From Pseudomonadota bacterium (GTDB lineage: Bacteria; Pseudomonadota; Alphaproteobacteria; Rhodobacterales; Rhodobacteraceae), in assembly GCA_038751255.1 (NCBI GenBank), contig JBCDGN010000006.1, forward strand, positions 689-64,688: a stretch of DNA of 64,000 bases, read 5' to 3'. Made by a program: the position numbers and the translations under genes. Numbering within the stretch: the stretch's first letter is position 1; every line of letters starts with the position of its first letter. The notes beneath the pieces were generated by a model that was not told the origin of the DNA, searched no databases, and saw nothing but the letters and a program-made list of their open reading frames with translations. This document shows, piece by piece, positions 6,926 through 38,176 of this stretch.

Positions 6926-8785
6926 ATGAGCGATCTGTACAAGCCGAGTATCTACGACCAGAGCGTGGATATCCGGGCCCGGTATTTCCGCGAATGCGAG
7001 GCGATGCTCGCCTATTACATGTCGCGCGGGATCGTGGTCACCAAAGAGATTTCAGACGAAATCGGTGGGCTCGCGGGGTATCTGACGATTGGGATCGACA
7101 AGCGCGACGAGATTCCGATGTCCGCACTCAACCGCTTGCACCATCTGCTCGCGGATTCGATCAAACCCGCATTACCCCGCACCATCGAGATGATGCATTG
7201 GGATGCACGCAACAGACCCATGCGTCATCGGATTGCGCCGGTCCCTGCGATCCGCAACCTCATTATGTTCACGATCTTCTCGTTCGCCTTGGGAATCTGG
7301 ATGCTGGTCCAGGGTGGAGATCCGGCGCTCTACAAAATTTCCATGTTCGATATGGATCCGGGCGATGTGATCCATGTCACATTGTTCTATGCGGCGCTCG
7401 CCTCGACAGGGGCTTGTTTTTCGGTGCTCTATGACGCCAGAAAATATGTGATCGAGGGCAGCTACGACCCCCGAATAGGATCGAATTACGGCATCCGAAT
7501 ACTGCTCGGCATCGTGGCGGGGCTGATCCTGACCCAGTTGCTCGCCGATCCCAAGGTCAATGATGATGGTCAGCCAACCACGGGCCTGCCCTATGGCATG
7601 CCGATCCTTGCGCTGCTCGGCGGGTTTGCTTCGCAATTTGTCTATAACGGTCTGAACAAGATGGTTGAGGCAGCATCGTCTATCTTTGAGCCCAACCGCG
7701 CCCAACAGGTTGATATGGCCGCCAAAGAGATTCGTGTCGCCACGGCAGAGAATAACATGTCGTCCACCTTGGGACGGATTGAGGCCACAGTGGACACCTT
7801 TGCAGAGATCGCGCGCGATCCGAAAAATGCCGCTTCGCCAGAAACCTTGGGCAAGCTTCTGAAGATCGCAGGCTCCAGTCCTGCGGCGCAACCCGCAACA
7901 CGCGCCTTGGGCGCTGCGCTTGGCCCGCATCGGGAATTGCTCGACAAGGTCGAAGGCGCCATCCAGGCAGGTAAGGTGTTGTCGCATGTCCTTCCGGGCC
8001 GAGAGTTGCGGGGGATCGTCTCTAAACTCGGGCGGTTGGAAAGCACGGTCGATGGGATCAAGACACTCGCGGGCGCCGGGGCGCAGTTCGACGCGGCCGA
8101 AAACCTGCTGGGCGTTGCGCGCAATTTGGGCGAACTTGATCCGACCCGGGCGGTGCTGAAACAAGCGGTGAAAGCCTTTGGTGGACTGCGCGGGATTGGA
8201 ACGCTCGCCATGGGGCCTACAGGTCTTGCGGTGGCGCTGATCTTAGGATCTGCCCGGCTTGGCGGGACGGTTTACGATCGCTGGAAAACGCGGGTTCTGG
8301 GCGCGGCTTTTAGCCAAGATCTGTTGCCGCCGGGTCTGCCAAACTCTGGCATGGCGAAAACAATACTGCAGGCGTTGCCCGATCTGTCTGGTCCCATTGG
8401 GGCGCCGCTGATGGACAATCCTGCTGCCTTGACCGATTTCGCGCGCAATGCCGTTGCAGGCCACGATGATGCCCTGTTCTCGGAATACGGCGAGGCGGTC
8501 GGTGGCGACCGGGCAAGTTTTGATGCGGCGCTCAATGACTTTCGGACGCTTGCGGTGGGAGAAGTTTTGCAGGGCGAATTGCCAGACGAGGTGGTCGAAG
8601 CGGCTGGGGCCGAAAACCCACAGGCGCTGTTTGATTTCTTCGATCAGGCACGGGGGGATCGCGAAGCCTTCAAGGCCATGGATGAGCTTTTCCTCGCGGG
8701 AACCAATGCCGCCGATGATGAAAAAGCGCTGCAGGGGTTGCTGAACGGGTTGGCGTCGATTGCTGAAGAGGAGACAACCGCATGA
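6926..8785 (+). CDS. Hypothetical multi-pass membrane protein (first gene of lysis-cassette-like tricistron)
   Basis: ORF track gives 6857..8785; start moved to ATG 6926 (MSDLYKPS) because GGGGGAGG lies 4-5 nt upstream. Four clustered hydrophobic helices (IRNLIMFTIFSFALGIWMLVQ, VTLFYAALASTGACFSVLY, IRILLGIVAGLILTQLLA, MPILALLGGFASQFVYNGL). These are followed by a long Ala/Leu/Gly-rich helical region and a fifth hydrophobic segment (LAMGPTGLAVALILGSA). No family recognised. The stop overlaps the next start (ATGA at 8782-8785). Confidence 0.7.
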   Translation: MSDLYKPSIYDQSVDIRARYFRECEAMLAYYMSRGIVVTKEISDEIGGLAGYLTIGIDKRDEIPMSALNRLHHLLADSIKPALPRTIEMMHWDARNRPMRHRIAPVPAIRNLIMFTIFSFALGIWMLVQGGDPALYKISMFDMDPGDVIHVTLFYAALASTGACFSVLYDARKYVIEGSYDPRIGSNYGIRILLGIVAGLILTQLLADPKVNDDGQPTTGLPYGMPILALLGGFASQFVYNGLNKMVEAASSIFEPNRAQQVDMAAKEIRVATAENNMSSTLGRIEATVDTFAEIARDPKNAASPETLGKLLKIAGSSPAAQPATRALGAALGPHRELLDKVEGAIQAGKVLSHVLPGRELRGIVSKLGRLESTVDGIKTLAGAGAQFDAAENLLGVARNLGELDPTRAVLKQAVKAFGGLRGIGTLAMGPTGLAVALILGSARLGGTVYDRWKTRVLGAAFSQDLLPPGLPNSGMAKTILQALPDLSGPIGAPLMDNPAALTDFARNAVAGHDDALFSEYGEAVGGDRASFDAALNDFRTLAVGEVLQGELPDEVVEAAGAENPQALFDFFDQARGDREAFKAMDELFLAGTNAADDEKALQGLLNGLASIAEEETTA

Positions 8786-9435
8786 TCCGCTATAGCCTTA
8801 TCGCTGCATCGCTCTTGATCGTCGCGAGTTGCGACGCCCCAGGGGTCCGGGCCCTAGATCAGCAGCAAAAAGCCGGATCAGAGGTTCAGGCTGCGACAGC
8901 GCTGCCCAATGATCTATCCGACCCGGTCAATGCCAAGACAGCGCGCAACAAGGCCCGTGCTTGTTTGGAACTCGCCCAGAAGGCGGTGGCAACGGCGCAG
9001 GCCAATACCGATGGTGCGCGCAATGATGCGGCCTGCGCACGCGAGAGCTATGCAAAAATTTTGTCGGATGCGGACCCGGTCACGGCCGCTGATTTCGTGG
9101 GTCAGATGGAAGCCTATCGGTTGACGCGCGAGACATCGACCTCAACCGGTGCGGGACGGCAGGCCAATTCCGCCATCGCGCAAGTGGCGTCACAGTTCAG
9201 TTCGGCAGTGCCCGGGCAGGCGGCGGGCCCCTACTACACCGCTGACAGCCTTTACTGGCAGGCGAGCTTTGCCAGCAGCACGGACCGCGCCTGTGACGAT
9301 CTGAGCGCAGCGGCCGCTGCGCTCGACACTGCGTCGGGTGGTACGAACACCCCGAATTTTCCAAGTTTCAGGGGCTCGGTCCGGGATCTTGACGCCTTGG
9401 TTACCCGAGATGCTGCCCAGAAGGGATGCGCGTGA
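8782..9435 (+). CDS. Hypothetical lipoprotein
   Basis: Signal peptide plus lipobox (SLLIVAS-C), Ala-rich, several Cys. ATGA-coupled to the upstream gene and overlaps the downstream gene by 10 nt. No family recognised. Confidence 0.7.
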   Translation: MIRYSLIAASLLIVASCDAPGVRALDQQQKAGSEVQAATALPNDLSDPVNAKTARNKARACLELAQKAVATAQANTDGARNDAACARESYAKILSDADPVTAADFVGQMEAYRLTRETSTSTGAGRQANSAIAQVASQFSSAVPGQAAGPYYTADSLYWQASFASSTDRACDDLSAAAAALDTASGGTNTPNFPSFRGSVRDLDALVTRDAAQKGCA

Positions 9436-11507
9436 TGACGATCCAGCTTCATGAGCGCGTTTACAAATTCACCACACCGATGATGCGCGGCACTTCGGTT
9501 CAGTTTATTCAGCGGGCTCTGATCGCCGCTGATCTGCTGCCTGCGGGTGAAGATGATGGGCTCTTTGGTACGGCGACGCGCGATGCGGTGTCTGAGTTTC
9601 AGCGCCGAAACGGTCTTGGGGTGGATGGCAAGGTCGGGCAGAACACCGCCGCCGCGCTGAATAAGCTTTTGGATGGCACGCCACCTTCGGAGATGCGGGG
9701 ATCTGGAACGCCATCGGCTCCGAAAAAGCCTGTCTTCACCGGCGCGGGTCCGAAGGTTGTCTCGGATGAACTGTTGCCGAATGCCCGTCCGAAGCGGGTG
9801 ATTATACATTGGACAGCAGGCCGGGGCCGTGCCTCTAACCTCGACAAATCCCATTATCATTTTCTGGTGGAGGAGGACGGCTCGGTGGTTCAAGGGCTCC
9901 ACCGGATCGATGCCAATGACCGACCTCATCCTAACCCGCGCGCCTCGCATACCCGTCGGTTGAACACCCATTCCGTGGGCGTTTCGCTTTGCGGGATGCA
10001 CAATGCCCAGGAGCGGCCTTTCGATGCGGGGAGATTTCCCCTGCGCGAGATCCAAGTGCAGGTCATGGCGCGGCTGGTGGCGCAAATCTGCCGACGCTAC
10101 GACATCCCTGTGACGCGTGAAACCGTGCTTGGGCATGGCGAGGTGCAAGACATCCTCAATGTGGAACAAAATTTCAAATGGGACCCGATGGTGCTGCCGT
10201 GGAAGCGCGATCTGACCTTTCGCGAAACCGGCGACTATCTGCGCGATTTGATCAGAAATGCGATGGAAGAAGACATCGCGGGCGAAGCCGCTGAGACCGA
10301 TGGCACCGGTCAGAGTGATCTCGTGATTTCCGGGCGTAAGGTGTCGGGTGGAGTGATAGATTACGATACCGCCACGTGGATCGCACTGGAACCCACCTGT
10401 CAGGCGATGGGCTGGCCAGCGCCGGTTCTGCTGGGTCTGCCCGAAGATGATAGCCTGGAAGATGAGGCCAATGGGGTTCAGATCGTGCCGAGTGAAGCCC
10501 CAATTGTGCTGTCTCACCGAATGATCCCGGTCGATCTGAAGTCAGAGGTGCTGTGTGTGCGGGCCGATGACTTTGCCGAGGCACTGGAGCTTGGCATCAA
10601 GGTTGAGCCTTCTGGTCAGGTCACGCTCGAAGGCACCATCGGCGGGATTGAAAAAGACGCGGTGACTGGGGCGGTGATGCGTTTTGTGACGATCCAGCGT
10701 GGTGACACACTTTCGGCCATTGCCCGGCGCGAGCTCGGGGATAGTGCGCGCTGGCGAGAGCTGCGGGATGAGGATGGCACGCACTATGATGCGGATAGTG
10801 CGCGGCGCATTTCGGCCGGGGATCGTGTGATGTTGCCGGATGGCACGGCGGCACCAGGGGCCGAAACACAACCGAAATCGGTCGCGGGTCTCACTCCGGA
10901 GATCATCGCAGAAGCCGCGGAAGCCGTCGCGAAGGCGGCCGATCCCGCCTTGAACCGCAAACGCGCCAAAGCGGCACTGCCTGGGATTTTGGAGGCCTGC
11001 TATAAATGGGGCGTCACCGACCGCTCTCACATTGCCTATGTCCTTGCCACGGCGCAGCACGAGTGCAATTTCGGCCACCCGATGGAAGAAAACTGGCGCA
11101 AAAGTGCGGCGCAGTTGGCATATGAGAACAGCAATCTGAACGAAAAAGACGGCGACGGGTTTCTGTTTCGTGGGCGCGGCTATGTGCAACTGACGTTTCG
11201 CTACAACTATCGTCGTTATGGCAAAATCGTGGGACGCGATTTGGAAAATGATCCCGATGACGTGAAAGATCCCGCTGTGGCTGCGGAGATCTTGGTCTAT
11301 GGCATGAGCCAAGATGGGTTTTGTGGACCCAACAAGATCCTATCGGCCTTCGGCGAAGGACCGGATTTCGACTTTATCGGCGCGCGTGCCATCGTGAACG
11401 GCGACAAGAACAAGCACGAAAAGCGCTATGGCACGACCAAAGGTCGGGGCATCGCAGAGCGCGCCATAAGGTTCCGCGACGCTTTAGACACCGTGGACTT
11501 ACCCTAG
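9426..11507 (+). CDS. Multi-module peptidoglycan hydrolase: PG_binding_1 + Amidase_2 (N-acetylmuramoyl-L-alanine amidase) + LysM + GH19/COG3179-like lysozyme module
   Basis: No N-terminal signal peptide. Modules in order: GLFGTATRDAVSEFQRRNGLGVDGKVGQNTAAAL (PG_binding_1); VIIHWTAGRG..HYHFLVEEDGSV..ETVLGHGEV (Amidase_2/PGRP type); VTIQRGDTLSAIARRELGDSARW (LysM); ATAQHECNFGHPMEE..FRGRGYVQLTFRYNYRRYG (phage-endolysin-type chitinase-like fold). Alternative start ATG 9435 (TGATG overlap). Confidence 0.85.
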   Translation: MRVMTIQLHERVYKFTTPMMRGTSVQFIQRALIAADLLPAGEDDGLFGTATRDAVSEFQRRNGLGVDGKVGQNTAAALNKLLDGTPPSEMRGSGTPSAPKKPVFTGAGPKVVSDELLPNARPKRVIIHWTAGRGRASNLDKSHYHFLVEEDGSVVQGLHRIDANDRPHPNPRASHTRRLNTHSVGVSLCGMHNAQERPFDAGRFPLREIQVQVMARLVAQICRRYDIPVTRETVLGHGEVQDILNVEQNFKWDPMVLPWKRDLTFRETGDYLRDLIRNAMEEDIAGEAAETDGTGQSDLVISGRKVSGGVIDYDTATWIALEPTCQAMGWPAPVLLGLPEDDSLEDEANGVQIVPSEAPIVLSHRMIPVDLKSEVLCVRADDFAEALELGIKVEPSGQVTLEGTIGGIEKDAVTGAVMRFVTIQRGDTLSAIARRELGDSARWRELRDEDGTHYDADSARRISAGDRVMLPDGTAAPGAETQPKSVAGLTPEIIAEAAEAVAKAADPALNRKRAKAALPGILEACYKWGVTDRSHIAYVLATAQHECNFGHPMEENWRKSAAQLAYENSNLNEKDGDGFLFRGRGYVQLTFRYNYRRYGKIVGRDLENDPDDVKDPAVAAEILVYGMSQDGFCGPNKILSAFGEGPDFDFIGARAIVNGDKNKHEKRYGTTKGRGIAERAIRFRDALDTVDLP

Positions 11508-11535
11508 CTCTCGGTTCGGCTCCTCAGGCGGAAAC

Positions 11536-14500
11536 CTATCGCGTTGAGCTCGCGGTGGACGTCGGTGGTGCAATTTGTAAGGCCTCTAGATCAATCGCAA
11601 CAGGTTTGGGAGCCTCGCCGGGGAGGGTCCCTGCGCGACGGTCGGACACTCTCAAGATGTGGGTGTTTAAATTCTCGGCCATGGGAATGCCTTCGGCGAT
11701 CTTCACCAGGCCGTCTTGAAAGATCTCAAACTGCGCATGGTAAAGCGCCTGGTTGTGCAGAATCGTTGCTGTGGCTTTCCAAAGACCGGGTGTTTCGGGT
11801 GTGGCCCAAAGCACCAAGGGACGCATCACGGCATGGGCTTGGGCCAGATCGTTGCCGCTGCGGTCGGTCTGCCAAGGCAACGCCTCTGCCGCCTCAAAAA
11901 TAGCGAAACTGCCTTCACCCTGACGCCCGTTAAAGTAATGCGTGTAGAAGCGTAGGTAAGCTCCGACGCTGTGAGCCTGATCCATTTTGATGGGACCGAG
12001 CGCGTTTGCGCGATGGATTGCTTCTATCGACCCATCCAATTCAATTGCCTTTTCGCTGTTGAGAATGACGAAACTGCGAACGGGCGCTCTGGGGCCGAAG
12101 CCGAACTGCGCCTCGACCAATGCACCTTCGTCGTAGAAAGACAGCGCAGTTTCGCGCAGATAAACCAGAGAGTTTTCTTCGTCAGCATCCAAAACCTCAG
12201 CGATCAGGCCAAAACTTGCTTCGAAGTCTTCTCCATCCAGAGTGCGCCAACTCGCATGCAGAAGCGGTGCGCGTCCCCAACCAAGGCCTTCGCGCCCGCT
12301 AAAGGCATCCTCACGGTCCAAATTGCGCAGCTCGCCAAGGACAATAGGGGCCTCCCGTCGTGCTTCGGCGCTGAGCGACGCGCGCCGATCTCTAGCAAGT
12401 TGATTGGCGATATCGCGGGCAAGCGCGAGCCGTGCATCGATCTTTTTGTCCAGCGCCACGCGGGCGATTAGAATGTCGATCGGTTGATCCTCAGGCCTTG
12501 CGTCATCGTCGCTGCCACGGACCAAGTGTTGGAGTTTTTCAAAGCGCTCAATCAACGCCAACACAAGTGGCAGACTATCAAGTGATCCCAAGGTCTCTGG
12601 CAGATAGATATCAATCTCTCGGAGCGCTTGCAGCTCCTGATCAAGGCTGCGGGCTGCACGCAAATAAAGATCGGCCGATATCAGTGCCGAGGTGAGGTGA
12701 CCGGGCTGACCGGGATCGAGCTCTAGCGCATCTCGGAAGGTGGTCAGAGCCAGTCCCAAAGCGGTCTTTGCCTCACTTGTGCGTCCCATAATGTGATGTG
12801 TGTTAGCGGCAGCTTGGTGGACAAAAGCCTGTCTTGCGACGGGTTCAGAGAGGCGCGGCGCAAGTTCTTGCTGCGCTTTGGCTTCTGCGATCGCCTCGTC
12901 ATGGAGCTCCCAGAAAAGTTCTGGCGTCAGACGTTTTTCGCCCAGATGCAGTAGCGCGCCATAGATATTCGCCCTTTGATGCAAGCTATAATAGGCGTTT
13001 GGATCGTCCATCGCATCAACTTGGAAATTGTCCAGAACAAAAAGCGCAGAGGATACAAGATCGTGGTCGAGACTGCCTTGTTGTGCTGCGTTGTCCAAAT
13101 CCATCATTGCCAGCAGCATCTCGGATTCAAACAAAGCTTCCGCTGGCAGCGTGCCTGTTTGCCGGAGTTGCTTGATCGTCTCGCTCATACTATCCCGCGC
13201 GATGTACACTCTGGGAAGTGGTGCCCGACGTTCCAGAATCCACTGCGCGGCGCGGAGCCATGTGGTATCCCAGATCAGCCGGTTTTGTGGCAACCCACGG
13301 GTCTGCAAATCATCGAGCAACGCTTCAGAAGCGATGACATCGGCCTCTGTCTGACCAAACTGATCTGCCGCTGCAGCATAATTCGCGCGCATCACCAAGG
13401 CTGTGAGCAACCGGTGGCGCGTTTCACCATTGCTTTGATCTTCGCGCGCAAGGGTCTCTAGCCGGGAAATCGCGTCATTGAGTGTTCTCGGCACTCCCAT
13501 ATGCGGAGTACGTTCGTAGAAGATGCTCGCTTTTGTGGAATCGATCTTCGCGCGCAACAGCGTAAGGCGGCGGAAATCCATCTCATCGCTGTTCAGAAGT
13601 TCCAGAGCGACGTTGTCGGCCATCTCGATGAACGGATCAGGCGAGATGTCGTAGCGTTCCTCGAAATCGAGATTTCTCAACGCAATCGCGCCATCCAGTG
13701 CTGCATTGGCAATCGCATAGCGTATTGCTGCGATCGAGCGTCCTTCTGCCTCTGCAAGGGTCTCTGGCGCGCCCAGGGCATCTTGCCACTCCGACCTGAA
13801 GCTTTTGAGCACTGGTTCGACACGGTCCCATTGGGTTGCGAAATCTCCGACATCGAACAAAGTCGCGGCGCGAAGTGTCTCTGACCGAACATGGATCTCT
13901 AATCGTTCGACGGCGGAAAAGTCTTGCTCACGCGACAGTTCGTCGGCGCGTTCTAGCCACGTTTCCATTCGGATAAGGTCAAGATCCGCGCTGGCATGTT
14001 CGGCCAAGGCTAAGGCCGCGGCGCGTTCAAGATCAGGTTCGGGCGTCCAGCTGTCTCGCGCATCGGTCAATAAAGTCTCGAGCCGCCCCGCCAAATTGCT
14101 TTCATAGGCCCACATTCCTGCATCGCGCAGTGCGTTCAGGCCCGCCAAATAGAACTCAGCGCGCTGGTGCGTTAGTTCGGGCGACGGTCCGGAGACCTCT
14201 TCAATTGAGAGCAGGGCCTGTTCTGTGTCTTGGATCAGCCCGAGCTTCTCGGATGCCGGTATCGCGGCGTTCGTTTCTAGTCTTTCAACAAAGCCAAGTG
14301 CCAATTTCTCTGTGCTGGTAAGCAGTTTTCCACGTTCTTGAGCGACCTCTTGCTCTTTTTCCTGTGCATAGGTGGCAGCTTGGCGGGCATAGAAAACCGC
14401 GACCAGAGCGATGATGGCAATGACAGAGGCCGTGCCCGCCAGGGTTGCCAAGGCACGGGTGTTGCGGCGTCGGCGCTTTTCAATTTGTTCTTGCTCTGTC

Positions 14501-17414: not shown

Positions 17415-17579
17415 GTTGAGACGATCTCACAATTACCGTCGCAACGTCACCCTTAAAGCGTTGGTCTGGCAGTTAAAAGTCTGTGTTCTGACCCAGGGAG
17501 AATGCCACCAACCAAAATTTTTTGTGGCTTGGTCCGGACAATCGCCGCGGGTCAAACACTGACGGAAAAAGTTGCGGCG

Positions 17580-17598: not shown

Positions 17599-17642
17599 AC
17601 GCCGAAATCGGGATGATCTATGCGGTCATCATTTTTGGCAAA

Positions 17643-29663: not shown

Positions 29664-29812
29664 TGGCTTGGATCACGCAAGTGCTGTGCTAGTGATTGCC
29701 CGAGAATGGGGTATTAATCTAGCCGCTATTTGGAACTGCTGGGTTTGGTACATGCTGGGGCAACGGTGGGATTTCGGGAGTGGCTCAGGGACGCTTGGGT
29801 GGTCCGCGTGAC

Positions 29813-30910
29813 ATGACCGAACCACGTCGGATACTCTCCATCTCTGGCGGGGGCGTTCGTGGCATCATCGCTGTCGCGTTCCTTGAGGCGGTAGAAGGTA
29901 TCTACCGCGCACGACGCGGGCCCGATGCTCGGCTATGTGACGTCTTTGATTTGGTCGGCGGGACCTCTACCGGTGCGCTCATTGCGGCGGCGGTAGCGCT
30001 CGGCCATCCAATGGAGCAGGTTGCGGATTTCTACCTCACCCGCGCAAAAGACTATTTCAAACGCCGAGCCTCTTGGCGCTTGGGGCTTGCGCCGGTGTAT
30101 GACGCTGCGACGCTTGAGAAGGAAATTCGTCTTGAGGTCGGCGATGTGCGATTGGGCGACCCAGAGCTGCGCACCTTATTCGCCGTTGTAATGAAGCGTC
30201 TCGACACCGGCGCCTCTTGGATTGTGTCAAACATCCCCTCTGCCCCTTATTTCGAAGACCCTCCAGACAACAGTTTTGTCGGCAATCGCCATTATCCGCT
30301 GGCGCGGCTCTTGCGTGCGAGCACAGCCGCGCCTGTCTTGTTCAGTCAAGAGGTCCTTGAGATCGTCGAAAACGAGCCGCCGGGTGTCTTCGTTGATGGT
30401 GGTATCAGCCCTTATAACGACCCTTCGCTCGCGCTGCTAATGCTCGCGCGGATGCAGGCCTTTGGCCTGTCATGGGAGTTGGGGCCAGAGCAGCTTTTTG
30501 TTCTATCAGTCGGCTGTGGTCAGGTTCGGCGCCGCCTGGAGCCGCAAAGCGCAGCGAGTGCCGGACCATTGCGCCTGGCAGCACAGGCGCTCATGGGGAC
30601 CACATGGGACGGCATGAACCATACGCGGATGATGATGCAGTGGCTTGGCGTGCCCTTGGTGCAAGAACCGGTCAATAGCGAAGTCGGCACCCTCGCCGAG
30701 GATCATCTTTTTGGGACACCGATTTTCTCAGAACTCAATCTTGACCTCCCGTTTGATGAAGACCGCTTGCGGGCTGCTGGACTGGATGTCGCGGAGGCAA
30801 CGCTCAAAGAGTATCGAGTGCTCGATAATCCTGACATTATCCATCCGCTCTACGATCTTGCCCGCGCTTGGTGCGCAAATACCTATGATTTAGAAGCTCT
30901 TTTGCCTTGA
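29813..30910 (+). CDS. Patatin-like phospholipase
   Basis: Oxyanion motif SGGGVRG, nucleophile elbow GGTSTG (GxSxG), catalytic Asp motif VFVDGGISPYNDP. The ORF opens at GTG 29780; ATG 29813 chosen. Confidence 0.9.
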   Translation: MTEPRRILSISGGGVRGIIAVAFLEAVEGIYRARRGPDARLCDVFDLVGGTSTGALIAAAVALGHPMEQVADFYLTRAKDYFKRRASWRLGLAPVYDAATLEKEIRLEVGDVRLGDPELRTLFAVVMKRLDTGASWIVSNIPSAPYFEDPPDNSFVGNRHYPLARLLRASTAAPVLFSQEVLEIVENEPPGVFVDGGISPYNDPSLALLMLARMQAFGLSWELGPEQLFVLSVGCGQVRRRLEPQSAASAGPLRLAAQALMGTTWDGMNHTRMMMQWLGVPLVQEPVNSEVGTLAEDHLFGTPIFSELNLDLPFDEDRLRAAGLDVAEATLKEYRVLDNPDIIHPLYDLARAWCANTYDLEALLP

Positions 30911-30919
30911 GGAGATATT

Positions 30920-32983
30920 ATGACCGACAGTGTTGAACTGCATCCTCGAATGACCTTACGCGTCGGCGTGACCGGCCATCGGCCAGACAACGAAGCGATG
31001 AAGGCGGCGATCGCAGAAGGGGGTCTTGAAGACAAGATCTCGAAACTGTTGCGGTGCCTTTCTGCTGCTGTTCAAGATCTCCACGCACAGGATCAGAACC
31101 CGCAAGATATTGGGAATACGACAAAAACCGCAGCCTACTCGAGTGAAGATCCAGAATTTCGTCTTGCCACCGCTCTCGCCGCAGGGGCCGATTGCATCGC
31201 GGCAAAAGCTGCGGTTCGCGAAGGCTACCTGCTCAGCTGTTTGCTTCCTTACATGCAGGCGCCTGCGCCAAACCGTCCCAACTATCGCCCGGATTTCACG
31301 GATGAAGAATGGGCCGGTTTCCAGGAGCTTTGGCAAATCAAAAATGGGCCGCGGCTCGAACTTGATGTCTCGGACGAAAACGATGATCCGCTTGCTTACC
31401 AGGCCGCTGGACGCTTGGTTTTGGCCCATTGCGATGTTTTGCTTGCCATTTGGGACGGAGAACCGAGTGGCGGGGTTGGCGGAACGCGCGATACGATGGA
31501 AGAGGCCCTGCGCCGTGGTCATCGTGTTATCTGGCTGGACCTCAAGACCGGCAATATTATCCTTTGGCCCACGCAACAGCAGGGCGGGGATCCCAGAGTT
31601 GATCCTGAATACCCGCGAATTGATCTGGAAAAAGGCTCTTGCGACCCTGTGTTGCAGGATATGCTGGAAACGCTCTTGGCCTTTCCGGAGACGCAATCGA
31701 CTGATCAGAGCGATCACCACAACGGATCCAAGGGCGCCCATGGTCAGACGCAATCTGACACGCGCGAAAGCCTGAAAGACTACTATGACGCGAAGGAGAA
31801 AGACGATGCCTATCTCATCTTTGGATATGATTGGCTGAGGTTTATCTTCAATGCAGGCGGAAGCTTATCGCTCAAAACTTCCTTCGTCACAGGACCAGAC
31901 GGCGACCAAAAGCGTTGGAAAAAGATCTCCGACGCGGCCGACAAAATTGAGGCAGATGCCAATCGGGATCGCGAGAGTTTATCCAACCGGATTGATCGTT
32001 GCATCGTTCGGCGATGGCGAAGGGCGGACCGTTTGGCCAATGAGTTCTCTGCACGCTATCGCAGTGCTTATGTCTGGAACTTTATCTCCGCGGCCCTGGC
32101 CGTGTTCTTTGGCTTACTGATCATACTGTATCCGACCGACTACCCACCCTTGGAAGGTGCCGCGACGGCTTTTTCGGACTGGAAAACACTGGAGATCAAG
32201 GCGATCCTGGTTCTGATCGAATTGGTGCTGGTCTTAGGTATTTTGTTGCGGACCTGGTGGGGCGTCAAAAAGCATTGGCATGAACGTTGGCTCGACTATC
32301 GCTATATTGCAGAGTCGCTTAGGCCCGCGCCGTTGTCGATGCTAATGGGCAGCTCTCCTCTAAGACCCGAACTTTTCCCAGGCGGCGCGCCGGGGCAGGA
32401 TTGGGTGATGTGGTATGTGAGAGCATGTCTGCGCGAAATAGAACCCCCGAGCGGTGTCATCGGACGCGAAGAATTGCGTCTGGTCATAAATGCAGCGCTC
32501 GAAACCGAGGTGGAACCGCAAATCAAGTATCATGCATTGAACAAAAAGCGGATGCACAAGCTGTTTCACGGGATCGAGAAACTAGCGAAGTGGTTGCTCA
32601 TTGCGACGCTCGGGGTCGGGGGGCTCTACCTAATTGTCTTTGCCATTTATTGGGTGACGGACCACAAATGGCTGTCAGATCAGCTTAAGAGCGTTGGGAA
32701 GCCCTGGTTTACCTTTCTAGGTGGCATTCTTCCGGTGTTTGGGGCAGCGCTTTTTGGCATCCGTGTGACCGGTGATTTTGGAGCGCTCGAGCGGCAATCC
32801 AAACGTACACTCGCCTCTTTGGAGAGTATTCAGGCGAACCTGCTGAAAGAGTGCAACGCGGAGCATAGTCCAAACCGGATCCGCTTGCGACGGTCGTTCG
32901 CGCACCTCTCAACGGTGCTTTCGGCAGACGTCCACTTGTGGGGGACCATCTATAGCGAGCGGCCCCTGCCTGCAGGTTTTTAG
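30920..32983 (+). CDS. SLOG-like nucleotide-binding domain fused to SLATT-type transmembrane modules
   Basis: Strong RBS GAGGAG 7 nt upstream. N-terminal Rossmann-like region RVGVTGHRPD..AAGADCIAA..HCDVLLAIWDGEPSGGVGGTRDTMEEAL (LOG/SLOG-like GGxGGTxxE motif). C-terminal half has two helix-pair modules preceded by amphipathic helices (YRSAYVWNFISAALAVFFGLLIILY / AILVLIELVLVLGILL; LAKWLLIATLGVGGLYLIVFAIYWV / WFTFLGGILPVFGAALFGI), resembling DUF4231/SLATT. Assignment is by eye. Confidence 0.65.
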   Translation: MTDSVELHPRMTLRVGVTGHRPDNEAMKAAIAEGGLEDKISKLLRCLSAAVQDLHAQDQNPQDIGNTTKTAAYSSEDPEFRLATALAAGADCIAAKAAVREGYLLSCLLPYMQAPAPNRPNYRPDFTDEEWAGFQELWQIKNGPRLELDVSDENDDPLAYQAAGRLVLAHCDVLLAIWDGEPSGGVGGTRDTMEEALRRGHRVIWLDLKTGNIILWPTQQQGGDPRVDPEYPRIDLEKGSCDPVLQDMLETLLAFPETQSTDQSDHHNGSKGAHGQTQSDTRESLKDYYDAKEKDDAYLIFGYDWLRFIFNAGGSLSLKTSFVTGPDGDQKRWKKISDAADKIEADANRDRESLSNRIDRCIVRRWRRADRLANEFSARYRSAYVWNFISAALAVFFGLLIILYPTDYPPLEGAATAFSDWKTLEIKAILVLIELVLVLGILLRTWWGVKKHWHERWLDYRYIAESLRPAPLSMLMGSSPLRPELFPGGAPGQDWVMWYVRACLREIEPPSGVIGREELRLVINAALETEVEPQIKYHALNKKRMHKLFHGIEKLAKWLLIATLGVGGLYLIVFAIYWVTDHKWLSDQLKSVGKPWFTFLGGILPVFGAALFGIRVTGDFGALERQSKRTLASLESIQANLLKECNAEHSPNRIRLRRSFAHLSTVLSADVHLWGTIYSERPLPAGF

Positions 32984-33001
32984 GAGCGAGAGACTGGTCG
33001 C

Positions 33002-33718
33002 TTAGCTGACTGGGTTCTTGGGCATTGTTCCTAGCGCCAGCACCCTGTTGAGGAGCTGGTGCACTGCTTCGGCAACGCCCGCGAGGACGATCGTGGTCAC
33101 GCCTATATCGATAAGCTGAAAGAGCTCGAGCTGTGTGGCAGGCAAGCTTGCAGCCACAAACTCCGGCGAGAACGCGGCTTTGAGCAATTGGAAGCCAGAA
33201 AGGCTCACCGCTGCACCCAAAAGACAGGACCAAAGGATGGCGCTGTGTTTTTTACGCCGGCGCAAATCCTCGAGCTTTAGCCGCGCATTGGCGGCCTTGT
33301 CCGATATGCCTTGGCGGATTGCCTCAGATTCGGCACCCATTGCGTCTTCGACAAGCAGCATCCTGTCTTGTGGGTTGACCAAAAGCTCCAGATCCTGTGC
33401 CAGCATATCGGAACGCACTTTGTTGCGCGCCAAGGCCTCACGCAGTGGCAGCTGGATCGCGATTTCTTCTGCCCCGTAGAGTGAGCTCAAGATGAGCTCC
33501 ACTCCGCGTTCAATGAGGATCGCAAGAAATAAGACCAGCACCAAGAGCTTGCCAAGATCAGCAAGGCTGACCCCGGCTGAACTGACCGCTGAGAACCCCA
33601 ATTTGCCAGCAGCAAAACTCGCCGCAACAATGATCAAGATAACAAGGCCGTAGCCTAACATGCTGATCTTTCCAGGGGCGGTGCCGTTATCGGTCATGTT
33701 GAACTGTCCCGAGATCAT
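33002..33718 (-). CDS. Hypothetical 4-TM membrane protein with a charged coiled-coil-like loop
   Basis: Hydrophobic helices (LGYGLVILIIVAASFAA, LLVLVLFLAILIERGV, AILWSCLLGAAVSLSGF, IDIGVTTIVLAGVAEAV). The start forms ATGA with the stop of the upstream subtilisin gene. No family recognised. Confidence 0.6.
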   Translation of the reverse strand: MISGQFNMTDNGTAPGKISMLGYGLVILIIVAASFAAGKLGFSAVSSAGVSLADLGKLLVLVLFLAILIERGVELILSSLYGAEEIAIQLPLREALARNKVRSDMLAQDLELLVNPQDRMLLVEDAMGAESEAIRQGISDKAANARLKLEDLRRRKKHSAILWSCLLGAAVSLSGFQLLKAAFSPEFVAASLPATQLELFQLIDIGVTTIVLAGVAEAVHQLLNRVLALGTMPKNPVS

Positions 33719-35196
33719 TGTGTGAAGTTTTTCCAGGCAATGGCCGGTTCAGCCGTCTTGTACTTGGCGGGCGCGTTGCCGGTGAGTTTTTCTCTGATCT
33801 CTGACACGTTGCCCGCAGTGACTTTGCCCGCCGAGATCGCGAGTGAGACCAAGCCTGCTGCCACCGCAACTGCACCTGACGTGCCGCTAAATCGGCAAAA
33901 GCAGGATCGGTAGTCGAGATACTTGTCCTCTTTCCCCTTTGCTTTGGCGAAGGGACTGCTGTTGTACCCTGCGCGCCCTGGCACGTCGGTTGAAATCAGT
34001 TCTTGCGGGGCAAAGCTGTGCTCGTCGGGCGGGTTCTCATGCGGATAGGTGTGCAGTTTACCGCTGTAGCAGCTCGATTGTTCACCGGCGCGATAGCCAA
34101 CCGCAACTGTGTCGATGCGCTGCATTCTTTTGTCGAGCCGCTCACCATCGCCGCTTGGGCCGTAAACGGTGACGTCGTTTGATTCCGGTGTGAAGGCTGA
34201 TCTTTGGCCCGCTGCCGTGCGTGCCCCGACAGCAATAATTCCGTGATGATTGCGTGCCAGTGAGGCAGGGAACAGTACAAGATCATCTCCCCCATTTCCG
34301 GCGGCGCACAGGACCGGGATCTTTGTGGAGACCGCGATCACCAACTCTTCCAAGAGGTCCCATTCTTCCATTTCTTCTTTGCGAAGGCCAACGCCTAGCG
34401 CTTCACTGAGCTTCTGACGCTTGTCATCTTCGCTGTCGTAACAGGCCTGTAGGACAAGGCTAACTGGTTTCGGAAAATCGCGCGCTAAGACGATCAGGTC
34501 CGCCTCAACCAAGACCGAATAGAGCATGGTGAGGATAAGTTGCTGAGGCTCTGGATTGAAATTGGTCGAGATCGGGATGATTTCGCAGAAGGGGTCGACC
34601 CCGGCATAGGCCAAGCCAAGCGTTCCTTCTGCGTCAGGGTTCACAACCATTTTGATATTGCTGTCTGCGGGTGTCACCGGTTGCGCACCGATCAGTCCCG
34701 CCATGGCCGTGCCGTGAGCTGAGAAATTTTTAGAGGTCGCGGGTTTCACTTTCGAACTGTGGTCTTTTTCCGGCGAGCTTTTCTCGAAATGCTGATCGAG
34801 ATGCTCGATCATGTCCTCCCAAAACTTGCGAGCGTCGTCAGGCAGATGCTCGGGCCAATCAACCTCACCTTTTTTGACGATCTTCCCAAGTCGACTGTCT
34901 CCCTTATTTTCCAAGATCGGCAGGCCAAGCTTGTGCGAGAAAAAATCGACACCCAAGTCTTTGGCGATGGTGTTCTTTAAATTGGGATGTTCATCATCCA
35001 CTGAGGTGTCGATCAGAGCGACCCGAGTGGCTGGGGCGTTGCCCTCTACGATGCGCGTGTGAGCATCGTCCCAGGCACTGGAATTGAAGTCATTGAGATT
35101 CTCAAGCACGCCGATTTCTTCTAGGTGCCAAAGCGCTTTGAAAGGGGCGTAAACGCCGGTGCTGTCAGCGCCGTTATTTGCAGGTGTCATCGTCAT
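33715..35196 (-). CDS. Subtilisin-like (peptidase S8) serine protease, no obvious signal peptide
   Basis: Catalytic motifs VALIDTSVDDEHPNL (Asp), HGTAMAGLIGA (His), CAAGNGG (oxyanion Asn), FSGTSGAVAVAAG (Ser). ORF track gives 33715..35259. Start moved to ATG 35196 (MTMTPANNG), which has GAGG 8 nt upstream and lies 10 nt after the upstream stop. Confidence 0.85.
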   Translation of the reverse strand: MTMTPANNGADSTGVYAPFKALWHLEEIGVLENLNDFNSSAWDDAHTRIVEGNAPATRVALIDTSVDDEHPNLKNTIAKDLGVDFFSHKLGLPILENKGDSRLGKIVKKGEVDWPEHLPDDARKFWEDMIEHLDQHFEKSSPEKDHSSKVKPATSKNFSAHGTAMAGLIGAQPVTPADSNIKMVVNPDAEGTLGLAYAGVDPFCEIIPISTNFNPEPQQLILTMLYSVLVEADLIVLARDFPKPVSLVLQACYDSEDDKRQKLSEALGVGLRKEEMEEWDLLEELVIAVSTKIPVLCAAGNGGDDLVLFPASLARNHHGIIAVGARTAAGQRSAFTPESNDVTVYGPSGDGERLDKRMQRIDTVAVGYRAGEQSSCYSGKLHTYPHENPPDEHSFAPQELISTDVPGRAGYNSSPFAKAKGKEDKYLDYRSCFCRFSGTSGAVAVAAGLVSLAISAGKVTAGNVSEIREKLTGNAPAKYKTAEPAIAWKNFTQ

Positions 35197-35206
35197 AGCA
35201 ATTACC

Positions 35207-36151
35207 TCAAGTCCATTCGGCGCGCGCAAGAAGCATCTGTTCTTCAAGCACAGATTCAAAAATAGGGGTCATCATGCGGGCCAGATCGCGCCCCGCAAAT
35301 GTGTCGACCGGATAGTGCACACCGGCCCATTCGCGGTTCTCCGCGATCCTGCGAGCGCTGAGGAAAAGCCACGCAATCCCGGGGTGTTCGGGCGCCACGC
35401 GTGAGAAAACAAAGGCCATCGAATGGGATTGGAAGGAGTGGTTCGATGGATAGGACGCATGTGCGGGGTTCGCAATGAATGTGTCAAGCTGCGGGTTCGC
35501 CATGCTGGGGCGCAGCACGTCAAACCGGTCTTTGTAGCGCAGCCCTATCTCTTCGCAGAGCCGAGCGACGATCAGGAAAAGCGCGGAGGTTTGTGGAAAA
35601 CTTGAAGGATCCTCGACGCCAAGTGGTCGGAGGTAACCCGAAAGCTCAAGCTGCATTTCACGTATGATCTCATCGCGGCGCCCGGATTCTTCCCAAGTCT
35701 GCAGTTTTTTCTGCTTTTCCAGCAATTCACCGGTCATGTGGCGCAGTTTTGTGATGGAAGGGGGCAGTTCTAAGGGCAAATCGCGCCACTCGTCGATCTT
35801 TTCATGCAGCAGCCCAATTTCGCGCCAAGGCAGCAGGATGTCGAAATCACTGCCGCCGGCAAAATCCGCACCCAAATCCTCTGCAAGATTGCGGTTGCGA
35901 TTTCTGTTCCGGTTCCGATTGCGGTTTCTGTTCCGGTTTCGGTTGCGATTTCTGTTCCGATTGCGATTTCGGTTGAGCACCGAAGAGGCGCCTCCTCCGC
36001 CAGAGGGCAAATCCATGAAACTGATCGGACTGGCAGTCCCGGTCACATTGACCGACAGCACCGTGGGGTCTGACGTACGAGGCACAAGTTCAAATGAGTC
36101 CCCGACCACCAAAAGCGTGGTCGTCTGTAATGTATCGCTGAAACTATTCAC
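35207..36151 (-). CDS. PAP2 / haloperoxidase-superfamily phosphatase-like protein with internal (Asn-Arg)14 tract
   Basis: All three PAP2 motifs in order: KDRFDVLRP (KxxxxxxRP), YPSNHS (PSGH variant), NREWAGVHYPVD (RxxxxxHxxxD). GTG start with GGGGGA upstream. N-terminal ~100 aa unassigned, followed by the NR dipeptide tract. Confidence 0.75.
   Translation of the reverse strand: MNSFSDTLQTTTLLVVGDSFELVPRTSDPTVLSVNVTGTASPISFMDLPSGGGGASSVLNRNRNRNRNRNRNRNRNRNRNRNRNRNRNLAEDLGADFAGGSDFDILLPWREIGLLHEKIDEWRDLPLELPPSITKLRHMTGELLEKQKKLQTWEESGRRDEIIREMQLELSGYLRPLGVEDPSSFPQTSALFLIVARLCEEIGLRYKDRFDVLRPSMANPQLDTFIANPAHASYPSNHSFQSHSMAFVFSRVAPEHPGIAWLFLSARRIAENREWAGVHYPVDTFAGRDLARMMTPIFESVLEEQMLLARAEWT
35888..35974 (-). 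repeat. In-frame dipeptide repeat (Asn-Arg)x14 + Asn inside the PAP2-like CDS
   Basis: Read codon by codon from the DNA: AAC/AAT alternating with CGA/CGC/CGG/AGA for 29 codons. The codon choice is mixed, so this is not a pure hexanucleotide microsatellite. Confidence 0.95.
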
Positions 36152-36175
36152 TGGAAGTCCCCCATGTGTTCCATA

Positions 36176-38176
36176 TTAGGCTCCTGCATCGATCAATCCC
36201 TGTTCGAGCACTTTCTTTGCAGTTTCGTCTTGCACCGCCATGCGGTTGGCCTGGACCCAGTCAGCCGAGAAATTAGGATCCATGCTGCGGATGCGGGCAA
36301 TGTAGTCTTTCGCTTCTTCGGCCTTGCCCAGATACGCGAGACTGATTGAGGTATAACGCAGCGCTGCACCGTAGTTCGGCCGTTGCGCCAGGATGCGCTG
36401 ACCGATTTTGCTCGCCGTGCGGTAGTCGCCCTCAAGCGCGCTGATCATGCATCTTGTGGTTTCTAGGGTGAACCTGATCGGGCTGAACTCACCCATTTTG
36501 AGCGCAATGGCAGAGGCGTAGTGGGCCTCTTTGTAGCGCGCATTGTAAAGATGGTGCAGTGCCAGATGATCCCAGCAAAAGGCCGATTGCGGGCCAAAGC
36601 GGATCGCCCGGTCCAAAAGCTCTGCGGAACTTTCCCGGTCATGCAGGATGTACCCCATGGCATGTCCGGCAAGCGCCAAGCCAATGCCGCCGCTGTGGGC
36701 CGTGTCGCCGGCATTGGCCAAAAGTGAGCGAGTTTCATCCCTGACTGCGCCGTCAAAAGACCGCCAGTGCTCGCCAACTGAAAACGTGTTCAAGTAAGCA
36801 AGAAGGGCAGGGTAGATCGATGTTCCGGTCAAAACCCAGCTTTCGTGCAGACGCGTCCTCAGCGGTCCGAGCGCAGTGTGGTCAAGCTGGAACATCGCGC
36901 TTAGAGCGTGGAAGGGACTGATCGGAGCGTCCCCGGCCACAGTGTTGCGAGTTTCCAAGGTTTTTGCGGCCTGATCGAAGGCCTTGCCCAGCATCGCCAG
37001 CGTCTTTTCATGCTCCGTTGCGCCGCCTGTCGCAGGAACGTTTGCGCAATCGACGCTCCATAGGAGCTCTTGATTGGCCTGTCGCATCGCCAAGATGCGC
37101 AGCGCCAATTCGCCTTCCTGTTCGTAGACCCGCATGCGCAGGAAGAGGTCGGGGTCGCGTGTTGCTGTCGCGCTCGGGTCCGGCACACCGGCGAGGTCGC
37201 GATAATCATAGCAACGCGCCCCGATGTATTCGCGCAAGCCCGTTGCGACCCGGTCCATGAGTGCTTCGGCGAAAAACATGGTCTGAGCGGATTGGGAATG
37301 GATCACCGGCTGCAACAGTCCGACGACCGGCCAATTCTGCTTGGCCTCATCCAGCGGGGTCGGAATCGCCGCTGGGGTGACCGCCGTGGGCAAGGTGGCT
37401 TGTGGCTGGGGCGCGGGCGGATCTTCTTCGTAGGCCTCGATGATTTCTTCGAGACGGTCATACCAATGAGACCGCTGCACGCGGAGCCATTCCTCGAACT
37501 CATCCGACACATCGCCGCGCAAATTGATGCCTTCCAAGAGATCCGGCAGCATCTGATGATGATGAGAGGGGATCGCCGAAGCACCCTGTGCTTCGATCAC
37601 GAATAGATCGACGCTCACACCTTGCAAGCGGATGTTGACTGCATCGGCTTCGATCAGGGCGGGGGAGAACCCGATCAGGCTCTTTCTCAGGCCATGAAGC
37701 GCGGTGCGCATGCTTTGTGCCGCTCGGCGAGGATCCTTTTCGCCCCAAAGCATATCCTGAAGCCGTGTCCGCGAAATCGTCCCGTTCGGCGCCAGCGCCA
37801 GCATCGCCAGCATCGCTTGTTGTTGCGGGCTTCGGGGCGTCCGATCTTGCTCTTGGACGTCCAAAAGTCTTAAGGGCCCCAATAGATAGAGCCGCGCTTG
37901 TTTGTCCGTGTCTCCGGTCGCCACCGGTCCACCCCGCGTCAGATCTTGCCCAGGCCCCCCACCGGACCTTTGCCCATCGGCAGAAAACTCCAACCAATTC
38001 AAGCTGTCCATCAAAGAATTCAAAGCGCCCTCCGGTGGCAGGCCGGTCCGCGAAAAAATCGTCGCGCTGTACATTGACTGGGCATCTATCGCAGCGGGCA
38101 AGTTCAAAGCGGGGGGCAACGCAAGACGGTTGGGGTAGTGGCTTTGGTTTTCATCGGCAATCTCCACCGGAATCAC
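36176..38176 (-). CDS. Winged-helix (OmpR/SARP-type) DNA-binding domain protein with large helical / TPR C-terminal region
   Basis: LYLLGPLRLLDVQEQDRTPRSPQQQAMLAMLALAPNGTISRTRLQDMLWGEKDPRRAAQSMRTALHGLRKSL fits a Trans_reg_C/BTAD-type wHTH. C-terminal TPR-like AQRPNYGAALRYTSISLAYLGKAEEAKDYIARIRSMDPNF. 24 nt upstream of the PAP2-like gene. Confidence 0.75.
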   Translation of the reverse strand: MIPVEIADENQSHYPNRLALPPALNLPAAIDAQSMYSATIFSRTGLPPEGALNSLMDSLNWLEFSADGQRSGGGPGQDLTRGGPVATGDTDKQARLYLLGPLRLLDVQEQDRTPRSPQQQAMLAMLALAPNGTISRTRLQDMLWGEKDPRRAAQSMRTALHGLRKSLIGFSPALIEADAVNIRLQGVSVDLFVIEAQGASAIPSHHHQMLPDLLEGINLRGDVSDEFEEWLRVQRSHWYDRLEEIIEAYEEDPPAPQPQATLPTAVTPAAIPTPLDEAKQNWPVVGLLQPVIHSQSAQTMFFAEALMDRVATGLREYIGARCYDYRDLAGVPDPSATATRDPDLFLRMRVYEQEGELALRILAMRQANQELLWSVDCANVPATGGATEHEKTLAMLGKAFDQAAKTLETRNTVAGDAPISPFHALSAMFQLDHTALGPLRTRLHESWVLTGTSIYPALLAYLNTFSVGEHWRSFDGAVRDETRSLLANAGDTAHSGGIGLALAGHAMGYILHDRESSAELLDRAIRFGPQSAFCWDHLALHHLYNARYKEAHYASAIALKMGEFSPIRFTLETTRCMISALEGDYRTASKIGQRILAQRPNYGAALRYTSISLAYLGKAEEAKDYIARIRSMDPNFSADWVQANRMAVQDETAKKVLEQGLIDAGA

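Follow-up and report, generated by a model that had tools for sequence, protein, structure and literature searches.

The nSTAND1 conflict systems (PMC8195603, PMC7159879) carry an nSTAND1 NTPase followed by a repeat sensor, encode a TIR protein as a separate gene of the same operon, and draw on trypsin and caspase peptidases, SLATT proteins, peptidoglycan-associated domains and proteolytic-cascade thresholding. The last of these was described, together with peptidoglycan-associated membrane-proximal STAND systems, in PMC7159879. In Thoeris of types I and III, SLOG domains sense the products of the TIR, and in type VII, cyclic ADP-ribose (cADPR) made by a TIR activates SLATT effectors (bioRxiv 10.64898/2025.12.03.692087). 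Here we describe a region of ~31 kb (positions 6926-38176) within a window of 64,000 nt, the whole stretch of DNA that was analysed, from contig JBCDGN010000006.1 (Rhodobacteraceae, assembly GCA_038751255.1). Its 21 consecutive genes (g1-g21) include a TIR-nSTAND1 pair with membrane and lipid partners (g4, g5, g15, g16 and g17; module A) and a cassette of exported proteases and associated proteins (g6-g14; module B). We read the region as a densely packed mosaic of conflict-type modules, each conserved separately, in which two multi-gene systems are nested and probably cooperate at the cell envelope, and we hold this reading to be somewhat probable. The novel elements are the exported cassette and the transmembrane wiring of the STAND protein.

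The region shares the nSTAND1 NTPase with its repeat region and the separate TIR gene, and the other features listed above as themes. The region differs in being without an EAD/Death-like adaptor pair, an FGE-sulfatase (FGS) domain or a diversity-generating retroelement (no reverse transcriptase was found in the island), in a transmembrane helix of g4 that is predicted to put the TPR region of this protein outside the cytoplasm, and in caspases, an S1 protease and a serpin that are Sec-exported and not cytoplasmic effectors. The Kaur papers (PMC8195603, PMC7159879) make no mention of a serpin, DUF4384 or a patatin. Among open-access papers, a literature search for RyR-domain conflict systems found none and a full-text search found no description of a serpin/caspase/OmpA/DUF4384 operon. 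PADLOC 2.0 recognised no part of the region as a system, in line with the claim of an earlier first-pass annotation of this DNA that the combination is not a named defence system, and its sole strong match was the patatin g16 to a CBASS phospholipase effector.

Thoeris III (several TIRs and a SLOG effector) and Thoeris VII (a TIR and the SLATT protein ThsH) share with the region a TIR and a membrane effector that bears a SLOG sensor and a SLATT-like module. The likeness to type VII (bioRxiv 10.64898/2025.12.03.692087) is one of architecture only, with TIR and SLOG-SLATT genes adjacent in a Caballeronia locus (L066). Unlike Thoeris, the region has its TIR wired to a STAND receptor and a patatin and a RyR protein in addition, and no ThsA model of PADLOC 2.0 (SIR2-SLOG or Macro-TM) matched any island protein. 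In type IV Thoeris, the TIR product N7-cADPR directly activates a cytoplasmic caspase-like protease, and the region similarly has a TIR and caspase-fold proteases in a single locus. Type IV Thoeris was rejected because all three caspase-fold proteins are exported, as was any direct activation of caspases by a TIR nucleotide: the compartments differ, and a cytoplasmic nucleotide cannot directly reach caspases with signal peptides. The cyclic oligonucleotide-based antiphage signalling system (CBASS) with the effector CapV was also considered, as g16 matches effector models and its oxyanion, GxSxG and DG motifs are preserved, and was rejected because PADLOC and Pfam found no cyclase in the region.

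In plants, AtSerpin1 inhibits AtMC9 and AtMC1, and arthropod immunity includes serine-protease cascades controlled by serpins. Module B resembles these systems in encoding a predicted inhibitory serpin with a basic P1-type residue together with metacaspase-like and S1 proteases, and in what would be suicide-inhibitor thresholding in an extracytoplasmic compartment. It differs in being bacterial, periplasmic and peptidoglycan-tethered, and its DUF4384 and OmpA-like partners have no counterpart in the eukaryotic systems.

Recurrence and composition of modules A and B

Judged by gene order, modules A and B were repeatedly found together and are nested in two genomes. Thirteen genes (g4-g14, g16 and g17) kept their order and strand arrangement, at 36-59% identity, on contig JBGAOK010000004.1 of the metagenome-assembled genome (MAG) GCA_044221805.1, where g15 alone was missing; our locus records L059 and L063 overlap on this contig. 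Its flanks are unrelated to those of the window: an alpha-2-macroglobulin gene borders the block at one end, and protocatechuate genes lie at the opposite end. The first-pass annotation had asked whether the island is one system or an aggregate, and had taken sub-clusters that never co-occur as the sign of a pure aggregate. The collinearity of 13 genes in a second MAG shows that they do co-occur. Neither of its two options holds in full, as sub-clusters that co-occur are not a pure aggregate by that criterion, and the region is not one obligate system because each module also occurs alone.

The TIR-to-nSTAND1 pair, with a 4-nt overlap, recurred in Roseovarius sp. CAU 1744 (L054), a TARA scaffold (L055), a JGI metagenome contig (L056), MAG GCA_044221805.1 (L063) and the Caballeronia plasmid pSBC2-4 (L066, in an nSTAND1-WD40 form). 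Full-length orthologs had 35-46% identity to g5 and 33-37% to g4 over the full length, and the g4 ortholog in L063 reached 53% in the N-terminal half only. The seven-gene cassette g8-g14 was collinear in L059/L063 (43-59% identity) and in MAG GCA_038747565.1 (L006, 45-62% identity), where it had a patatin and housekeeping genes upstream and four unannotated genes downstream. On Rhizobium plasmids (R. johnstonii 3841 pRL11, record 630898-640643, L067; R. leguminosarum pRle248d, L058), parts of the cassette occurred in fused form as DUF4384-TPR-OmpA, caspase-EF-hand-DUF4384, trypsin-caspase-DUF4384 and serpin proteins, all with signal peptides. The next gene encodes a Ser/Thr kinase that spans the membrane once and has a weak FGE-sulfatase-like match in its periplasmic part. 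In Rhizobium, this transmembrane kinase, whose periplasmic domain is lectin-like, takes the position equivalent to that of the receptor g4. Searches of plasmids with tblastn matched g13 on 96 Rhizobium plasmid records, g10 once and g15 not at all, and the serpin query at 1e-5 missed the Rhizobium serpins.

Plasmid p2 of Azospirillum sp. TSA2s (L057) kept the divergent layout, with OmpA-DUF4384-caspase opposite OmpA-caspase-caspase. A 1214-aa Tubulin_2 and GYF_2 protein (L057 12282-15926) adjoins the OmpA/caspase/DUF4384 cluster there, and its domains recall the conflict systems with tubulin- and GYF-containing GTPases in Kaur et al. 2020. In the distant locus L069, a TIR and a SLOG-SLATT protein were accompanied by an M15 peptidoglycan peptidase, an OmpA protein and a caspase that carries a signal peptide. 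A metagenome scan with the g13 alignment returned 47 loci, all of them distant caspases with ≤38% identity over the caspase domain except for one 60-residue fragment at 47%, and an OmpA-caspase pairing was present in only two of these loci (L007 and L020).

The open reading frame listing and Pfam scans gave 21 genes with a coding share of 97%, two fewer than first reported; the PGAP locus tags AAGF94_02600 to 02665, which cover exactly the 14 genes g4-g17, agree with the shorter list. Pfam recovered the TIR, STAND, three caspase-fold, S1, S8, serpin, patatin, RyR, PAP2 and peptidoglycan hydrolase proteins where the first-pass annotation had placed them, and the assignment of this repertoire to the NTP-dependent conflict systems of the Aravind group was borne out, nSTAND1 having been defined in PMC8195603. 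The catalytic residues were intact in the three caspase-fold proteases, as reported, and also in the S1, S8 and patatin proteins. Only two of three reported OmpA-like proteins were detectable (g7 and g12), and Pfam placed DUF4384, a domain not named before, in g8, g10, g13 and g14. All nine proteins of g6-g14 open with a Sec-type signal peptide, which is missing from g3, g5, g16 and g19; g15, g17 and g18 are predicted membrane proteins. Intergenic gaps inside operons ranged from -10 to +9 nt. The previously stated seven transcription units hold if g7-g6 are parted from g5-g4 at a 228-nt gap, and otherwise the strand runs number six.

TIR-nSTAND1 pair. Gene g4 (11536..15957, - strand) encodes a 1473-aa membrane-anchored nSTAND1 NTPase with more than 5800 homologs and is translationally coupled to g5 (15954..17414, -), which encodes a 486-aa TIR protein. 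The GTG start of g4 overlaps the stop codon of g5 and the protein begins directly with its NTPase domain (nSTAND1 PF20703, 5e-93, residues 74-502 of the long open reading frame). A single strongly hydrophobic helix, with the patch RRRRNTR before it, lies right behind the NTPase and was kept in 12 of 13 orthologs. The ~950 aa behind the membrane were modelled by AlphaFold2 (AF2) as a TPR solenoid of ~630 aa with an alpha/beta domain at the C-terminus, with a predicted local distance difference test (pLDDT) score of 79; a fold search of this part returned generic TPR solenoids only, and the C-terminal alpha/beta domain had no match. We predict that the post-membrane region faces the periplasm and that the NTPase is cytoplasmic. 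The g5 protein has an N-terminal TIR and two TIR/DUF4062-like domains (Pfam TIR_2, 4e-13; DUF4062, 0.002), and its Glu96, of catalytic type, was invariant in six orthologs.

SLOG-SLATT protein. Sequence motifs, an AF2 model and Foldseek agreed with the earlier call of g17 (30920..32983, +) as a SLOG-SLATT membrane protein, with an N-terminal SLOG domain (a DprA/LOG-like Rossmannoid) fused to a SLATT transmembrane module. In Pfam it had only a weak DUF4231 match (SLATT clan, residues 369-468), and the motifs RVGVTGHR, SALAxGAD and GGTAEIV were conserved in 46 homologs. The protein has four transmembrane-like helices. In the model (pLDDT 88), the N-domain matched ShosA and DprA with a Foldseek probability of 1.00 over ~200 residues, and the C-terminal half consisted of long helices that weakly resembled alpha-pore-forming toxins. 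This family adjoined a TIR and/or STAND gene in all six contexts, the window included, across Alpha-, Beta- and Gammaproteobacteria; five of the six had both a TIR and a STAND NTPase, and L069 had the TIR alone. The order was RyR protein, g17-like protein and TIR-STAND fusion in L060, and RyR, nSTAND1-Ank, g17-like, TIR, AAA_16 and TPR in Halomonas (L061), where the element also carries TraG and an integrase. In L066 the g17-like gene directly precedes the TIR, which is followed by nSTAND1-WD40. A 498-aa paralogous SLOG-SLATT-like protein lies behind the STAND gene in L063 (14945-22511), followed by a 1964-aa alpha-2-macroglobulin, which as a bacterial member of its kind would be another periplasmic protease inhibitor, and a transglycosylase fragment.

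Patatin and RyR proteins. Gene g16 (29780..30910, +) encodes a cytoplasmic CapV-type patatin-like phospholipase (Patatin, 2e-24 in Pfam; PADLOC CBASS phospholipase effector PDLC00758, 6.7e-38) with intact GGGVRG, GTSTG and DGG motifs. Its 59% identical ortholog adjoins the g17 ortholog in L059. Patatins also occur upstream of the Paracoccus relative of the g1-g3 operon (a large one, L064 4414-12615) and of the cassette (L006 7272-8414), and near a caspase/serine-protease/CHAT cluster on Pseudosulfitobacter plasmids (L068 1869-3323). Gene g15 (27519..29663, -) encodes a membrane protein that combines a Rossmann (TrkA_N-like) with a RyR domain (RyR, 7e-8; TrkA_N weak at 0.019; Pfam) and transmembrane-like segments, and a 36.5% identical ortholog lies directly behind TIR-nSTAND1 in L055. 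RyR proteins adjoin a TIR and/or SLOG-SLATT gene in four independent loci (window 27519-29663; L055 15065-17380; L060 5858-8620; L061 1-3362), and their partner domains differ, being membrane-anchored in the window, TrkA_N/Rossmann in the window and L061, and AAA in L060. Searches of the PDB with the g1, g8, g15 and g17 sequences returned nothing useful. In animals, cADPR modulates the ryanodine receptor RyR. Recent work showed that canonical cADPR serves as a signal made by bacterial TIRs (bioRxiv 10.64898/2025.12.03.692087), and this, with the position of RyR genes next to TIR and SLOG-SLATT genes, hints that bacterial RyR domains may sense TIR-made nucleotides.

Exported proteases. The caspase-fold proteins are g6 (17643..19157, -), which ends in a PG_binding_1 domain (3e-10), and the metacaspase-like g13 (24522..26042, +) and g14 (26044..27522, +). 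Peptidase_C14 matched at 1e-41, 1e-15 and 3e-23, respectively, with the catalytic domain directly behind the signal peptide and His-Cys dyads in p20 (g6 H102/C153, g13 H98/C166, g14 H117/C176). The g6 ortholog in L063 was 55% identical. The C-terminus of g13 is DUF4384-like, and g14 is fused to DUF4384 (5e-9). The nearest PDB sequences to g14 were the metacaspases Yca1, TbMCA2 and AtMC4 (4e-21), which are Arg/Lys-specific. Behind p20, g13 has a loop, DLDQDGALSRDE, that is a canonical EF-hand Ca2+ loop, Dx[DN]xDGx[LV]xxx[ED] (25260-25295, residues 247-258). The loop was kept in five exported g13-type caspases, with orthologs in L006, L059, L067 and L057 from marine MAGs to Rhizobium and Azospirillum, and this conservation suggests Ca2+ gating. 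The S1 (trypsin-fold) serine protease g11 (22733..23605, +; Trypsin, 6e-50) has its His, Asp and Ser intact and a signal peptide that starts from the Met at 22733.

Serpin and partners. Gene g9 (21070..22134, +; Serpin, 2e-34) has orthologs with 45% (L006) and 43% (L059) identity. It has a small-residue P15-P9 hinge, EEGAEAAAATAA, and a reactive-centre loop with IGVR-S, and the Arg-Ser at the predicted scissile position was invariant in four cassettes; g9 is therefore predicted to be an inhibitory-type serpin. Residue 189 of the S1 pocket is Thr in g11 and varies among the proteases compared (Thr, Asn, Asn and Asp). Since this residue varies while the metacaspase-like partners are constant, the metacaspases are more likely than S1 to be the conserved target of the serpin. 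Gene g8 (20303..21079, +; DUF4384, 8e-23), which heads the seven-gene operon, had orthologs with 49-53% identity in L006 and 43% in L059. The small cassette-specific g10 (22140..22736, +; DUF4384, 4e-7) was 52-57% identical in L006 and L059, and its family had 118 cluster representatives among 1.84 billion. Outside this setting, DUF4384 is known only in association with proteases and, as a variant, at the C-terminal end of Csx30, on which the caspase-like Csx29 acts as its substrate; here the domain may serve as an adaptor or substrate module. Two OmpA-like peptidoglycan-binding proteins complete the cassette: g7 (19206..19754, -; OmpA, 6e-7), upstream of g6, with a signal peptide from the Met at 19754 and a 46% identical ortholog in L059/L063, and the anchor g12 (23602..24519, +; OmpA, 2e-15), with 51-57% identical orthologs. 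The g7/g8 intergenic region was aligned to its L063 counterpart and contained no conserved block.

Proposed mechanism and rival explanations

In module A, the g4 receptor would sense an envelope or periplasmic cue and oligomerise in an NTP-dependent way, and the assembled g4 would switch on the coupled TIR protein g5. The TIR would turn NAD+ into an ADP-ribose-derived nucleotide that the SLOG domain of g17 would bind, and the SLATT helical module would then open or permeabilise the membrane. The CapV-like patatin g16 and the Rossmann-RyR protein g15 would probably act as parallel nucleotide-responsive membrane effectors, with membrane collapse, in the form of abortive infection or growth arrest, as the outcome. 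In module B, three metacaspase-like proteases and the S1 protease would be tethered to the sacculus and kept in check by the co-exported suicide-inhibitor serpin. Such an arrangement would give a thresholded periplasmic proteolysis, possibly Ca2+-gated via the EF-hand loop, that fires on envelope breach. Any conflict role of this exported protease network is putative. We tentatively suggest, while thinking it rather unlikely, that the cassette feeds a periplasmic signal into the transmembrane receptor g4 or serves as one of its outputs. With similarly low expectation, modules A and B could form a single two-compartment immune device in which a peptidoglycan-tethered, serpin-thresholded, Ca2+-gated periplasmic cascade would pick up or amplify an envelope breach and act through the g4 TPR region on the TIR and then on SLOG-SLATT, patatin and RyR. 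Were that so, it would be a bacterial counterpart of the extracellular protease cascades that feed Toll/TIR signalling, and an early instance of a link from TIR nucleotides to RyR domains.

What metacaspase-like proteases and serpins do in bacteria is a long-standing question, and here both are encoded in one exported operon. The cassette was kept from marine MAGs to plasmids of R. johnstonii 3841 and R. etli CFN42, and because it is present in genetically tractable Rhizobium strains, the metacaspase/serpin question is directly testable. A STAND receptor with an external sensor that is joined by TIR, SLOG-SLATT and RyR proteins would, if true, extend NLR-like immunity (after the nucleotide-binding leucine-rich repeat receptors) to envelope surveillance, and the TIR/RyR wiring hints at a prokaryotic root of the association between cADPR and RyR.

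Several observations weigh against two cooperating systems at the envelope. Modules A and B are known from their genes alone, with a putative function and at most a putative link to phage, and their coupling is not obligatory, as each occurs without the other: TIR-STAND in L054 and L056 has no module B, and the L006, Rhizobium and Azospirillum cassettes have no TIR/STAND. The full 13-gene block was found in only one other genome, for which vertical inheritance could also account. The periplasmic position of the g4 TPR region has the positive-inside rule as its only basis. No EAD, bDLD or TRADD-N was found in g4 or g5 by Pfam even at E ≤ 5, nor an FGE-sulfatase match in g4. In the window, g5 and g17 are 13.5 kb apart, which also sets the region apart from Thoeris, and the PADLOC ThsB1 model matched g5 only marginally (E = 0.0083), beside a solid TIR_2 match in Pfam. 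No CD-NTase/SMODS cyclase was found in the 21 proteins with PADLOC and Pfam, so the activating nucleotide for g16 would have to come from the TIR. The variable residue 189 of S1 leaves the target of the serpin uncertain, and promoter and terminator scans of the region were at chance level.

A pure defence-island aggregate, with six or seven independent systems side by side and the 13-gene collinearity due to shared ancestry or block transfer, is possible but in our view doubtful. Every unit was found alone elsewhere (TIR-STAND, the cassette, g1-g3 and PAP2-S8), a single further genome shows the full nesting, and island and flanks differ mildly in composition (tetranucleotide correlation r = 0.83-0.89 inside vs 0.92-0.96 outside); these points favor an aggregate. 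It accounts less well for the placement of the g17 family beside a TIR in six of six contexts from three proteobacterial classes, for the exported caspase, OmpA protein and peptidoglycan hydrolase that are again near TIR and SLOG-SLATT in the distant L069, and for a cassette embedded between the parts of module A in two genomes with different flanks. The convergent gene ends are also tight (28, -4 and 18 nt), which suggests long co-residence of the units.

Two other explanations concern the purpose of the genes. Some pathogens and gut bacteria direct TIR proteins, ExoU-like patatins and serpins at their hosts, and relatives of the cassette are on plasmids of plant- or alga-associated Rhizobium, Azospirillum and diatom Pseudosulfitobacter, so eukaryote-like proteins (serpin, caspase-fold proteases, patatin, TIR and RyR) with which a host-associated bacterium would manipulate host proteolysis, lipids or Toll-like receptor (TLR) signalling have to be considered. 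We judge this improbable: translation of the TIR is coupled to that of a STAND NTPase, the TIR and patatin are without secretion signals, the SLOG-SLATT and RyR proteins are integral to the membrane, the OmpA/PG_binding_1 modules would tether the proteases to the cell's own sacculus, the island has no secretion-system genes, and relatives of TIR-STAND are also present in marine bacteria that live freely and in TARA plankton. Alternatively, module B may consist of envelope housekeeping or developmental proteases for turnover, vesicle or wall remodelling or regulated lysis, with the serpin as a safety catch and no relation to invaders. The periplasmic, peptidoglycan-associated nature of all module B parts is consistent with this, as are the peptidoglycan hydrolase operon and PAP2 phosphatase in the same region and the periplasmic alpha-2-macroglobulin behind the block in L063. 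The cassette is nevertheless rare, patchy (as judged from the small g10 family) and often plasmid-borne, which is not a housekeeping pattern, and its recurring neighbors are of conflict type (TIR-STAND, FGS-like kinase, Tubulin_2-GYF and CHAT), making a housekeeping role likewise improbable. The mosaic of nested modules remains the reading we prefer.

Outer units and flanks

Genes g1-g3 and g18-g21 were never found with the core genes in the loci examined, and we regard them as passengers whose conflict role is unproven; for g1-g3 and g19-g21 the best explanation is that they are independent modules merely alongside. The g1-g2-g3 operon is headed by g1 (6926..8785, +), a 619-aa protein with no match in Pfam, PHROG, NCBIfam or the PDB. 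Paracoccus versutus pTAV3 (L064) has the same operon of three genes, which opens with a full-length g1 homolog of 30% identity. Gene g2 (8782..9435, +) overlaps g1 by 4 nt and encodes a 217-aa predicted lipoprotein with a lipobox in its N-terminus, MIRYSLIAASLLIVASC; a 213-aa gene product is encoded at the equivalent position in Paracoccus. Gene g3 (9426..11507, +) encodes a multi-module peptidoglycan hydrolase with PG_binding_1, Amidase_2, a LysM-like stretch and a GH19-type lysozyme in Pfam, and matched PHROG endolysin families at 4e-34, 8e-31 and 3e-26. The operon loosely recalls a lysis cassette (export factor, endolysin and spanin-like lipoprotein), and no phage genes are nearby. A prophage or gene transfer agent remnant was rejected because the region is without structural or mobility genes.

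On the other side, g18 (33002..33718, -) encodes a 238-aa predicted multi-pass membrane protein with four transmembrane-like segments and no family match in Pfam, PHROG or NCBIfam. The S8 subtilase g19 (33715..35196, -; Peptidase_S8, 8e-18) has its Asp, His and Ser and is 48% identical to a homolog on Palleronia pTHAF1_a, where the PAP2-S8 order is the same; the order of TPR protein, PAP2 and S8 on that plasmid matches g21-g20-g19. The PAP2 phosphatase g20 (35207..36151, -; PAP2, 3e-8) has weak similarity to undecaprenyl-diphosphate phosphatases. A 12-nt tandem repeat at 35889-35974 encodes (Asn-Arg)14 in its N-terminal part, and the length of this repeat may vary. Gene g21 (36176..38176, -) encodes a putative regulator with a SARP-like winged helix and TPR repeats (Trans_reg_C, 1e-4, and TPR_19 in Pfam; AfsR/SARP, 2e-10 in NCBIfam). 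Beyond Pfam, PHROGs and NCBIfam gave only endolysin, SARP and mycosin-like hints.

Searches agreed with the earlier report of no mobility features: there was no integrase or transposase domain among the 21 island proteins, no tRNA or Rfam match in the region, and no flanking direct repeat above chance around it. Best matches of several region proteins were from Rhodobacterales (Roseovarius, Paracoccus and Palleronia). A genome scan with the flanking racemase returned nearest matches of 48-59% identity in unrelated contexts, and its only exact match was a 1.8-kb Logan contig. Both flanks are as first described. ABC permeases and an Asp/Glu racemase end at 6638 on the left; on the right, genes for an MFS transporter, a GH42 beta-galactosidase and the breakdown of galactonate start from 38257. 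This galactoside/galactonate cluster (38257-46001; MFS, GH42, gluconolactonase, 2-keto-3-deoxy-galactonokinase and GH4) is co-stranded with g18-g21, and its MFS gene lies 80 nt from g21.

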